From an uncultured Acidobacteriota bacterium (GTDB taxonomy: Bacteria; Acidobacteriota; Vicinamibacteria; Vicinamibacterales; UBA823): a stretch of DNA of 64,000 nucleotides. Positions 43,054-46,431 of this stretch are shown one piece after another; position 1 is the first letter of the stretch, and each line of letters starts with the position of its first letter. Both the position numbers and the translations under genes were made by a program. Below the pieces are notes generated by a model. The model did not search any database and had not been told where the DNA came from. It saw only the letters and a program-made list of their open reading frames with translations. The stretch covers positions 33,820 to 97,819 of the forward strand of contig CAJXDY010000002.1 in NCBI GenBank assembly GCA_913052135.1. Direction: 5' to 3'.

Positions 43054-44658
43054 TTATGTAGCTTGACGCCGTTTTTCACTAGCGCGTTCCGCCTTCAATC
43101 GTTCCAAATCAATCTCGCTATGATCGGCGAATTTCATAGCCGCAGCGACTGCCTGATGTCCAGCTTGTTCCCCAATGAGTTTATGCATTTTTTGGCTCAC
43201 GCGTCGATAGGCAGGATGTCCTTGGGGAGCGCTACGAAGTTCGATAAGGTGCATTGCCTCGCGCGCATTCATCTGCATATAGAAACGAACTCGATAGGCC
43301 ATTGAAATGGCATACGATGCAATTCGTTCCAGGCCGCGAGTAATTAAGGTGTCGTAAAGATCGGCTGTTGTTGTCATAACCTTCTGCCAGTCGTTGAGCG
43401 CACCCACTTCTTCAATTGCGGCGGGTTCCGTGAAGCCATGGGCAGGTGTGAGGTTTTGCCACTCAAGAGTAAGGAGGCGATGTCGCTGCAAATCTCTGAA
43501 AGCCCCGTAGTCAGATAGCACATCGAATCGGTACGTCGCTCGTTCAAAGGCACGTCCAGGCTTGTGGCGGCGATTGGTTCTGTTACCCACATAGGCCTGA
43601 AGGACAGATACACGTTCCTCTGTGGACATCGACCGGGCTATCGAGAGTAGCTGATCGTCTGGCAGTCGTGACACGGCGTAGAGAGCCCCAGCCACAATTT
43701 TAATTTCACCATCGGGGTCGTAATCAGTCAGCACAACTTCGTCTTGAGGTTCCGGCTTGATTTGTTCTAGGACGGTCGCTGACAAGCGTTGCATATCGGT
43801 TTGGTTTTCCGCCAGGTACTTACTCCAGCGTTCACCGCGATCTGGTCGGTCGACTCGGGTTAAGAATGCGGGAATCACCTTACGTAGTTCTGTGAGCATT
43901 GCGGCAGCGTACTGCTGAGCCTCAGCCAGCGGGTTTGCACGCATCTGTAGAAGCAAGGCCTCGTACGCCTGTCCCGAGCCGTAGATACCAACGTTCGACT
44001 GGGTTGCTGCCGGTAACAGGCCACGAAGTGTATCGAGTGCTTTAGCTCTGATTGCTGCTCGGTAAACACCATCGGAATCGCTTGTCGCCTTCGGAAATCG
44101 TTTTCGATAATGAGCCTGCATAGGTTCTAGCCAGTGTGCATAGGTTGCGAAAGCAGCATCGAGCGTTTCGGTATAGTGCTTCCAGAGCACTGGATCTTTA
44201 ATTTCCTCAGGAATCAGGTATTTCCAGCGACCGTTCGACTGATCAGTGTATGGCACGTAACGTGTCGATTGCTCTAGGTACGACATGAGTCGCCCGCGTT
44301 CGAGAATCTTAGTTAAAATATTAGAAGCACCTTCACAGGCGATGTGGGCACCACCCAGTTGTGCCACTGAATCATCCCCGTAATCAGAGAACACCCGCGT
44401 ATAGAGTTTCTCAGCACGTTCGACACCAACTTCTGAAGTTGTTACGGCAGTCGCTGCCATGTCGCTAGAGAACTCGTCCAAAAAAAGACGGCGCAGGGAT
44501 TTTGCGGACCGTGAATATCGCGCGAAAAGGGCACCCTTTACTACCTCAGGTAGATTCGTGATAGCAAAGACTGGGCTATCGAGATTGGTGAAATATGGCG
44601 TTAGAGTTAGGCGTTCATTGGCCGTAAATTCTTCGTGGCCAGAAAGTACGTTAGGCAC
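43054..44658 (-). CDS. thyX: Flavin-dependent thymidylate synthase, long tandem-domain form
   Basis: N-half ERGRLMSYLEQSTRY; C-half FRDLQRHR and LIELRS; 534 aa. Confidence 0.85.
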   Translation of the reverse strand: MPNVLSGHEEFTANERLTLTPYFTNLDSPVFAITNLPEVVKGALFARYSRSAKSLRRLFLDEFSSDMAATAVTTSEVGVERAEKLYTRVFSDYGDDSVAQLGGAHIACEGASNILTKILERGRLMSYLEQSTRYVPYTDQSNGRWKYLIPEEIKDPVLWKHYTETLDAAFATYAHWLEPMQAHYRKRFPKATSDSDGVYRAAIRAKALDTLRGLLPAATQSNVGIYGSGQAYEALLLQMRANPLAEAQQYAAAMLTELRKVIPAFLTRVDRPDRGERWSKYLAENQTDMQRLSATVLEQIKPEPQDEVVLTDYDPDGEIKIVAGALYAVSRLPDDQLLSIARSMSTEERVSVLQAYVGNRTNRRHKPGRAFERATYRFDVLSDYGAFRDLQRHRLLTLEWQNLTPAHGFTEPAAIEEVGALNDWQKVMTTTADLYDTLITRGLERIASYAISMAYRVRFYMQMNAREAMHLIELRSAPQGHPAYRRVSQKMHKLIGEQAGHQAVAAAMKFADHSEIDLERLKAERASEKRRQAT

Positions 44659-44764
44659 AGAGATATAATAAACTCGGTACCCCGCGTATGGTCAATTGTT
44701 CTGCTTCAATCGTGCTAACCTACGCTCGATTACAGTGTGTCTGGATACATCGACCGAATGTCCT

Positions 44765-45226
44765 ATGAGTGTTACTTTTTGTTACAAGATCGAGGTGCGT
44801 TTTCGCGATTGCGATGAATTTGGTCATGTGAATAACGCCGTATATTTCACATATCTTGAAGAAACCCGCCATGTCTACCTCAGACATCTAGCTAGTCAAG
44901 GTGTATCCAGTAACGCCGCTGATGAAAAACTGCCGCACGGGTTTGTGCTCGTCCGGACCGAATGCGATTTTCTCTCCGAGGCATTACCAGGCGACTGGCT
45001 TGAGATTCAGTTGCGTGTATCGAAAATCGGTCGGTCAAGCTTCGGATACGAATACGAAATAATGAATACTTCCAAGAGTCAGTTGGTAGCACGGGCGAAA
45101 TCAGTTCACGTAGCTTACGATCGCATAAAGAAACGGTCGCAACCGATCCCCGAAGAGTTCCGTGCGGTCCTTGAACGTGCGATGCAAGGATTATCTGAAA
45201 CATCGATTGATGTTGTTTCGGACTGA
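44765..45226 (+). CDS. Acyl-CoA thioesterase (4HBT/YbgC hotdog family)
   Basis: VRFRDCDEFGHVNNAVYFTYLEETR. Confidence 0.88.
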   Translation: MSVTFCYKIEVRFRDCDEFGHVNNAVYFTYLEETRHVYLRHLASQGVSSNAADEKLPHGFVLVRTECDFLSEALPGDWLEIQLRVSKIGRSSFGYEYEIMNTSKSQLVARAKSVHVAYDRIKKRSQPIPEEFRAVLERAMQGLSETSIDVVSD

Positions 45227-45257
45227 CAAATTTCCATTGCACAAGGAGACAGCAGGC

Positions 45258-45473
45258 ATGATTTACATATTTGGCAAGGATACGTGACCGTACACAGTAG
45301 CTGCCCGTGAAAATTACGAAAGGCAGCAGATTGCTGTTGATTACATCAACGTAAAGCAGGATCCTGCGGGTCTAGAACGTATGCTCAAGTATAGCAATGG
45401 TCGTCGCGATGTTCCTGTAATTGTAGACGACGGCACGGTGACGATTGGATACGGTGGAAGCTGAAAGGTTTAA
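45258..45473 (+). CDS. UXX-star-type glutaredoxin-like selenoprotein with two in-frame UGA (Sec10, Sec69), 71 aa
   Basis: AGGAGA SD, then MIYIFGKDT-U-PYTVAARENYERQQIAVDYINVKQDPAGLERMLKYSNGRRDVPVIVDDGTVTIGYGGS-U-KV-stop(TAA); UGA at 45285-87 and 45462-64; SECIS-like hairpin after each. Confidence 0.88.
45300..45327 (+). promoter_or_regulatory. SECIS-like hairpin for UGA 45285
   Basis: GCTGCC/GGCAGC lower stem, CGT/ACG upper stem, loop GAAAATT starting 21 nt after the UGA. Confidence 0.6.
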
Positions 45474-45479
45474 TTGTGA

Positions 45480-45495
45480 TCTGCCGGTCGGCAGA
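45480..45495 (+). promoter_or_regulatory. SECIS-like hairpin for UGA 45462 (in the 3' UTR)
   Basis: TCTGCC-GGTC-GGCAGA; loop starts 21 nt after the UGA and has the GGUC core of the E. coli fdhF SECIS loop. Confidence 0.72.
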
Positions 45496-45612
45496 ACTAG
45501 TCAAGTTGGTAAAGTGGTTTCATGCGTGCATTGTTTAGTAAGGCAAGGCGTCGAAAGTCTTGCCCTCATTTGACTGAATTGCGGTCGTGTTATTCGGTAG
45601 ACATGGTTGGTG

Positions 45613-46431
45613 ATGCGGCATGAGTTAATTTTCGTCGGCAATCCGGGGCCGCTTACAGGAGCTGGTAACAATACTTATTTGCTGCCAGGTCTGGAACCAA
45701 CCCTGATTGATGCCGGAACAGGGCAAGACACGCATCTTCTTGCGCTTGCAGCCAAGTTAGACGAGTCGAATGCGAGATTATCCCAAAAAAAAGACTTACT
45801 CGCCAAGGTCCTAGTTACCCATTGCCATTCTGACCACGTATCTGGGGTTCCCGCAATTGCGGAACGATGGCCATTAGCTGTTTTTGCCAAAATGCCATGG
45901 AAGGATCAGGATGAGCAGTACCGTGTTTCTTGGAAGGCTTTGGAAGACGGCGATCTTATTCCAGCTGGTGATTCCACACTCCAGGTTGTCCACACGCCAG
46001 GTCACTCGCCGGATCACCTATGTTTCTTTGATCGCGAATCAGGGACGTTGTTCTCAGGCGATCTCGTTATCGCGGGAAGTAGTGTAGTGATTCCAGCTAG
46101 CGCTGGTGGAGATCTGGTGGCGTACCTGAATTCCTTGCGCTTAGTTTTATCGATGAAACCAGCTTGTCTGCTTCCAGCACATGGTTGCTCCATCGACGAA
46201 CCAAATACGGTCATTCAAGCGTATCTAGATCATCGTCAGCAACGTGAAGATCAAGTTATTGCAGCACTTCGACAAGGCGCGAAAACGATCGATGACATTA
46301 TCAGCAATGTGTACGAACCATTGGACTCTGGGTTAATCCGTGCGGCTCAGGAGAACGTACTGGCTCATTTGACGAAGCTCGTGTCTGAAGGTCGAGCTGC
46401 ACATGATGGTACGGTATGGTGGATGTCATGA
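45613..46431 (+). CDS. MBL-fold metallo-hydrolase (LACTB2-like, C-terminal winged helix)
   Basis: GNNTY, THCHSDH, TPGHSPDH, SGDL, PAHG, YLDHRQQRE. Confidence 0.88.
   Translation: MRHELIFVGNPGPLTGAGNNTYLLPGLEPTLIDAGTGQDTHLLALAAKLDESNARLSQKKDLLAKVLVTHCHSDHVSGVPAIAERWPLAVFAKMPWKDQDEQYRVSWKALEDGDLIPAGDSTLQVVHTPGHSPDHLCFFDRESGTLFSGDLVIAGSSVVIPASAGGDLVAYLNSLRLVLSMKPACLLPAHGCSIDEPNTVIQAYLDHRQQREDQVIAALRQGAKTIDDIISNVYEPLDSGLIRAAQENVLAHLTKLVSEGRAAHDGTVWWMS

Follow-up and report, generated by a model that had tools for sequence, protein, structure and literature searches.

A predicted two-selenocysteine protein of UXX-star family 1 encoded between a thioesterase and an MBL-fold hydrolase gene of an uncultured Acidobacteriota bacterium

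Between a hot-dog thioesterase frame ending at 45226 and an MBL-fold hydrolase frame starting at 45607, the window (the whole 64,000-nucleotide stretch of DNA that was analysed; all coordinates refer to it and, unless stated otherwise, to its forward strand) contains a gap of 380 bp in which an ORF scan detected no table-11 open reading frame of at least 60 residues on either strand. This raises the question of whether the gap is truly devoid of genes or accommodates one whose in-frame UGA codons are read as selenocysteine (Sec) and, in the latter case, what kind of protein would be formed. Direct reading of the sequence revealed a Shine-Dalgarno-like AAGGAGA (45243-45249) 8 nt ahead of an ATG (45258-45260), which opens a frame of 71 codons terminated by a TAA (45471-45473). 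The only interruptions of this frame (45258-45473) are two TGA triplets, one at codon 10 (45285-45287; GKDT-U-PYT), which corresponds to the first Cys of the glutaredoxin CxxC motif, and one at codon 69 (45462-45464; GGS-U-KV-stop), which specifies the third residue from the C-terminus. Translation with TGA as U yields MIYIFGKDTUPYTVAARENYERQQIAVDYINVKQDPAGLERMLKYSNGRRDVPVIVDDGTVTIGYGGSUKV. An earlier note on this DNA had described the gap, the ribosome binding site, the start codon, the 71-codon frame with its two TGAs and the motifs GKDT-U-PYT, VPVI, IGYGG and GGS-U-KV, all of which are present in the sequence or its translation. We consider it highly probable that the frame is a real gene which is translated into a selenoprotein of 71 residues with glutaredoxin fold, belonging to UXX-star family 1, and we include in this estimate the predicted mode of action outlined below.

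The claim that gene callers overlook this gene also applies beyond the window, as public gene calls truncate or fragment its homologues. Forms with Cys at position 10 are terminated at UGA69 (‘...GFGGT’) and named ‘glutaredoxin 3’, and forms with Sec at this position appear as 42-residue fragments. Moreover, several records (P0002, P0043, P0053, P0060, P0078 and others) contain translations with TGA as Trp (…GKDTWPYT…GGSWKV), some of them running past a TGA stop; such translations are artificial and arise where genetic code 4 or 25 is used for metagenome bins. The practical meaning of the present analysis is therefore an annotation fix for a gene that is omitted or truncated by callers and mistranslated with TGA as Trp by some pipelines. 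A general reassignment of TGA was rejected for the window's own genome, because TGA acts as an ordinary stop at the end of 411 of 1188 (35%) open frames of at least 300 codons.

Profile searches, for which Cys was substituted for Sec, matched the window protein to NF041114, “UXX-star selenoprotein family 1”, with 117.2 bits (cut-off 72), residues 2-71 covering model positions 1-70 of 70, and to the parent model NF041212 with 93.4 bits (cut-off 66). The Pfam Glutaredoxin profile aligned with residues 3-60 (41.5 bits, E = 1.6e-10). Because the latter match spans the first TGA and the former extends over residues 2-71, the frame is far beyond what chance would produce. Models of UXX-star families 2 and 3 and of the HUGP/GUXX-star fusion (NF041211, NF047338 and NF045501) scored 54, 50 and 49 bits, below their cut-offs of 100, 97 and 325, and all classical Grx and NrdH NCBIfam models also remained below cut-off (GRX_bact 38 versus 90 bits, NrdH 25 versus 86 bits). 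A confident AF2 model calculated with 20 homologues (pLDDT 90.6) displays the succession β1-α1-β2-α2-β3-β4, after which the chain ends in a short tail instead of a helix. Among PDB structures, Foldseek ranked glutaredoxins, NrdH and the redoxin BC3987 highest (TM 0.76-0.79), and the sequence-profile matches in the PDB are glutaredoxins as well. U-x-x-T at the active site (U10-P-Y-T13), U-x-x-stop at the C-terminus (U69-K-V-TAA) and the predicted glutaredoxin fold are thus found together, and the assignment to the UXX-star family and to the glutaredoxin fold made in the earlier note stands, given the NF041114 score above cut-off and the agreement of AF2 and Foldseek. An assignment as classical dithiol glutaredoxin or NrdH was rejected, as the motif is UPYT and not CxxC and as the chain stops 4 residues after the GG. 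The same genome carries a second, conventional glutaredoxin-like gene with no in-frame stops (G000:C55:3778-3975), which matches NF041114 weakly (41.9 bits).

The genomic surroundings of the gene in the window comprise, in this succession, peptide deformylase, ThyX (encoded on the opposite strand), thioesterase, the UXX-star gene itself, MBL-fold hydrolase and M20 dipeptidase. ThyX is a long-form flavin-dependent thymidylate synthase of 534 residues with two Thy1 stretches (43054-44658, reverse strand). The YbgC/4HBT_2-type hot-dog thioesterase (44696-45226; Pfam 4HBT_2, 87 bits) is separated by 31 nt from the UXX-star gene and probably belongs to the same operon, and the MBL-fold hydrolase (45607-46431; Pfam Lactamase_B and BLACT_WH) carries a winged-helix tail. 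Of 36 related loci, about 17, most of them from a single order, have a thioesterase gene directly upstream, often overlapping the start codon; this arrangement was also found on the P0013 contigs, which are unrelated metagenome contigs. The MBL-fold hydrolase and the M20 dipeptidase are conserved downstream in the window's own family and in P0007 contigs. Synteny of the block of ThyX, thioesterase and UXX-star gene extends over several families of the order and to unrelated metagenome contigs (L071/L072), where ThyX lies on the same strand. In other lineages the neighbours comprise an MFS transporter, ArgRS, an acyl-CoA dehydrogenase with an SDR, a U32 peptidase or an ABC transporter, and in several Acidobacteriota loci the UXX-star gene is followed by genes for a MacB-like ABC ATPase and an FtsX-type permease of ca. 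850 residues. A universal functional neighbour was therefore rejected, the thioesterase being limited to the loci and contigs just named, and the other contexts being heterogeneous. As part of a more speculative reading, which is taken up below and which we hold to be rather doubtful, the operon with the hot-dog thioesterase that is conserved in Acidobacteriota might hint at an acyl-thioester or a CoA-linked substrate.

The same data bear on the best surviving alternative, in which the protein is as described but its two selenolates serve as ligands of soft metals or metalloids (Hg, As, Cu) or carry selenium or sulfur species instead of performing thiol-disulfide exchange. Two soft ligands, one on a flexible tail and one at a helix N-terminus, would suit chelation. 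However, no mer, ars or cop genes adjoin the window gene, whose neighbours are ThyX, the thioesterase, the MBL-fold hydrolase and the M20 dipeptidase; no metal-resistance context was encountered among the neighbours in the window or in the loci of other lineages that were examined, the contexts there being heterogeneous; and the fold together with the cis-Pro motif are redoxin features. We consequently regard metal binding or chalcogen transport as unlikely and favour a redox function of the selenoprotein.

The interval between the UXX-star and MBL-fold hydrolase genes displays an indel of ca. 80 nt (approximately 45514-45593) that is present in the window and in the same-genus MAG L027 and absent from the same-genus L026. 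Within this indel are a GGCAAG...CTTGCC hairpin and the one terminator-like site that the region possesses (45571-45587); it could be a small inserted element or reflect a deletion in L026. The records of L026 and L027 are labelled ‘Woeseiaceae’ (Gammaproteobacteria), but in the genome collection both fall into one order with MAGs labelled Acidobacteriota/Vicinamibacterales, including G036; the NCBI labels are thus probably wrong. On a contig of G036 (CAVQXT010000003.1) two paralogous UXX-star family 1 genes, L036 and L045, are located about 10 kb apart.

Whether both UGA codons are read as Sec was assessed from their conservation. A family search in 41 genomes of the same order retrieved the gene above cut-off in 26 of them, nearly all with two in-frame TGAs and four with one, and a pattern search of GTDB genomes provided 20 further loci; the comparison was based on 36 distinct homologous gene sequences. 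Codon 10 is TGA in 25 and a Cys codon (TGC or TGT) in 11 of these, a pattern which reads as a classic Sec/Cys interchange. Codon 69 is TGA throughout (36/36), and in every case two sense codons, neither more nor fewer, separate it from a stop. Codon 70 encodes Gly (GGG, GGC or GGA), Glu, Lys or Ala, and codon 71 encodes Val, by means of all four Val codons, or Ile. The preservation of Val71 through synonymous codons indicates purifying selection past the supposed stop, and the ribosome must therefore read through UGA69. The stop proper is TGA in 17, TAG in 15 and TAA in 4 of the 36 homologues. The architecture with one Sec at the active site and a U-x-x-stop terminus also occurs in a MAG labelled Actinobacteria, a MAG labelled Deltaproteobacteria and unbinned metagenome contigs.

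Distant relatives were collected by a full HMMER scan of the family profile against 1.84 billion representatives. At the column aligned with residue 69 they include proteins with a Cys-x-x-end, namely P0039 (...GTCGV), P0132 (...GYCGI), P0109 (...RYCAV) and P0147 (...GSCSF); in P0120, P0133 and P0148 a Cys at position 69 is recognizable from the tail pattern. The Cys-containing counterparts to which the earlier note had looked are thus found for both positions, for position 10 in the 11 Cys forms among the 36 homologues and for position 69 in the distant Cys-x-x-stop relatives.

The RNA structure downstream of UGA69 is consistent with its decoding as Sec. A SECIS-like hairpin in the 3' UTR (45480-45495; UCUGCC-GGUC-GGCAGA), referred to as hairpin 2, has its loop start 25 nt from the U of UGA69; its location behind the gene is explained by the fact that UGA69 leaves only two codons. 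The 3' UTR of each of the 36 homologues contains a hairpin that is rich in G+C and comprises 5-8 bp, and in 34 of the 36 the loop starts +20 to +25 nt from the U of UGA69. The loops consist of GGU, GGC, GGG, GGUC or CGUGC. The stem differs by lineage, and RNAalifold indicated compensatory double changes in 6 of 6 consensus pairs. An intrinsic terminator was rejected as explanation of hairpin 2, because no T-run follows it on the 3' side. The designation of this hairpin as the SECIS element of UGA69 is therefore well supported by comparison of sequences.

These findings also weigh on a second alternative, according to which only UGA10 encodes Sec and UGA69 is the real stop of a 68-residue protein, hairpin 2 having some other role. 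It would agree with the end of the Cys10 forms in public gene calls and with the fact that no Cys is found at position 69 in the close family 1 set of 36 genes. It would leave unexplained, however, why two sense codons and a stop invariably follow and Val71 is retained through four codons, why the hairpin is spaced like a SECIS, has G-rich loops, shows compensatory changes and is not followed by a T-run, why distant relatives carry Cys-x-x-stop at the aligned column, and why the NF041114 match extends through residue 71. Termination at UGA69 thus appears very improbable, and we retain the reading of both UGAs as Sec.

A stem-loop that may serve UGA10 is located within the coding region (45294-45337) and was proposed on the grounds of folding energy and synonymous-site constraint. 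Its core stem GCUGCC/GGCAGC (45300-45305 and 45322-45327) is followed, directly after the 5' arm, by G23-U24 of ‘CGUG’, nucleotides being counted after UGA10. The region folds with an MFE of −18 kcal/mol (z = −2.86 relative to shuffled sequence). The four-fold degenerate third positions nt 21 (GCC) and nt 24 (CGU) are invariant in 24 TGA forms, whereas in 11 Cys forms they reach an entropy of about 1.8 bits; neighbouring third positions after codon 10 vary freely in TGA and Cys forms alike. The position of the constrained G23-U24 corresponds to the known spacing of the SECIS of E. coli fdhF. The proposed 6-pair stem (nt 16-21 with nt 38-43 after UGA10) is 81% paired among the homologues and imperfect in some lineages; its covariation is no better than that of shuffles, RNAalifold returning only a trivial 3-pair structure, and the fold energies do not separate Sec from Cys forms, the synonymous-site invariance being the only property that does. 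Altogether, this sequence pattern makes a first SECIS element probable. An Rfam scan of 44600-46200 with E up to 10 produced no matches, which is uninformative because Rfam contains no bacterial SECIS family.

As the true stop is itself UGA in 17 of the 36 homologues, two UGAs only 9 nt apart must be read differently, and the simplest explanation would be that the spacing to the hairpin distinguishes the Sec codon from the stop codon. Following established bacterial Sec biology, SelB with Sec-tRNA(Sec) would bind to each hairpin and deliver Sec once the ribosome has arrived at the UGA, with the loop ca. 20 nt further downstream. The true stop, 9 nt past UGA69, would be too near the hairpin for recoding, and translation would end there for this reason.

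This scenario presupposes Sec decoding in the organism. The window, on contig C2, belongs to a 2.39-Mb assembly of 104 contigs that is 91% complete. With regard to the machinery that the earlier note had named, it contains tRNA-Sec, the selC product (67 bits, above the Rfam cut-off; anticodon tca according to aragorn), selA (536 bits) and selD (352 bits; G000:C53:8459-9382, L021), but selB was not found: an HMM search, a G1-motif scan and tblastn with the same-genus SelB returned only EF-Tu, IF2 and other GTPases from this 91%-complete genome. The tRNA-Sec gene (G000:C80:220-316, L001) is situated 220 nt from a contig end. The selD gene has one in-frame TGA and is therefore itself a selenoprotein gene, which independently requires working Sec decoding. 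Above-cut-off selB genes were found in 11 of the 15 genomes searched, the window's own included among the 15, and the same-genus genome G002 has one with 359 bits; its 5-kb selB region, flanks included, has no nucleotide match anywhere in the window's genome. Because the same-genus genome has selB and the whole region is missing here, the absence looks like an assembly gap and not like a gene loss. The undetected selB is also what would speak for a decaying glutaredoxin pseudogene or a gene untranslatable in this organism, an explanation that we consider the least probable of all and close to negligible, since conservation across the order and beyond includes both TGAs as well as the protein sequence between them, selD of the same genome likewise needs Sec decoding, tRNA-Sec and selA are intact, and the same-genus selB region with its flanks is missing wholesale from the 104-contig assembly.

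If both Sec residues are incorporated, a first scenario for the working of the protein can be derived from the modelled structure. Sec10 would be positioned at the N-terminus of helix 1, at the site of the nucleophilic Cys of glutaredoxins, with Thr13 replacing the resolving Cys at +3. Sec69 would reside on a short free tail directly after the GG turn, the usual last helix being missing. In glutaredoxins the GG turn lines the active-site groove. With Sec10 at the nucleophile position and Sec69 on a tail beside this groove, an intramolecular Sec10-Sec69 diselenide, as suggested in the earlier note, or a selenenylsulfide in the Cys10 forms, appears plausible. The tail would then shuttle redox equivalents and resemble in this respect the GCUG tail of mammalian thioredoxin reductase. 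As Sec69 is invariant in family 1 and position 10 tolerates Cys, the tail Sec is probably the indispensable centre. The comparison does not generally support a role of the tail Sec as substitute for the missing resolving Cys: many CxxC relatives end with ‘...GGG/GGS’, exactly where the tail UGA would cut, P0115 being the only CxxC protein with Thr at position 69. As CxxC relatives thus also appear to end at a tail UGA, the tail Sec is not simply a replacement of the resolving Cys. Going further, we speculate by analogy that Sec69 might be the primary catalytic centre and residue 10, Sec or Cys, its resolving partner, so that the protein would constitute a self-contained miniature of the tail mechanism of thioredoxin reductase; we hold this extension to be rather doubtful. 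If it were true, the availability of selenium would determine whether the active protein is made in full length or a Sec-less form shorter by 3 residues arises, because UGA69 is so near to the end of the protein.

Several known systems share individual traits with the window protein. Mammalian thioredoxin reductase carries a C-terminal Gly-Cys-Sec-Gly tail which exchanges redox equivalents with an internal redox centre. The likeness concerns Sec on a flexible C-terminal tail and the possible working, not the family, the reductase being an unrelated large flavoenzyme with a eukaryotic SECIS; in both cases the SECIS follows the stop codon because Sec is near the C-terminus. SelL proteins are thioredoxin-fold proteins with a UxxU motif whose two Sec have been proposed to form a diselenide; both reside in one motif, whereas those of the window protein are 59 residues apart. 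A closer relative in fold is the selenoprotein glutaredoxin of Clostridium oremlandii, whose structures 7c10 and 7c12 are among the fold matches of the window protein. According to a 2026 review (PMC13188914, citing Kim et al. 2011), it has been experimentally characterised and likewise has Sec at the first active-site position of a glutaredoxin fold, but its motif is UxxC, with a single Sec, and its C-terminal helix is complete, a Sec in the tail being absent. The sister families UXX-star 2 and 3 and HUGP/GUXX-star, which the same review credits to Haft & Tolstoy 2025, share the shortened glutaredoxin domain whose third-last residue is Sec and differ by other active-site motifs or a fused domain. 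UXX-star family 1 itself is tabulated in the review as ‘Distant Grx-like protein 1’ and credited to Zhang & Gladyshev 2008 (PMC2398784). With UXX-star family 1 the window copy shares the full-length HMM match, UxxT, two Sec, the Sec-x-x-stop end and the glutaredoxin fold; apart from its origin in an uncultured marine lineage and a terminus S-U-K-V in place of the T-U-G-V commoner elsewhere, there is no real difference. The window gene is accordingly an ordinary member of an already known family, curated (NF041114) and published (2008), and implies no new kind of biology, the family itself ranking among the few bacterial proteins with two predicted Sec and a SECIS-like element past the stop codon.
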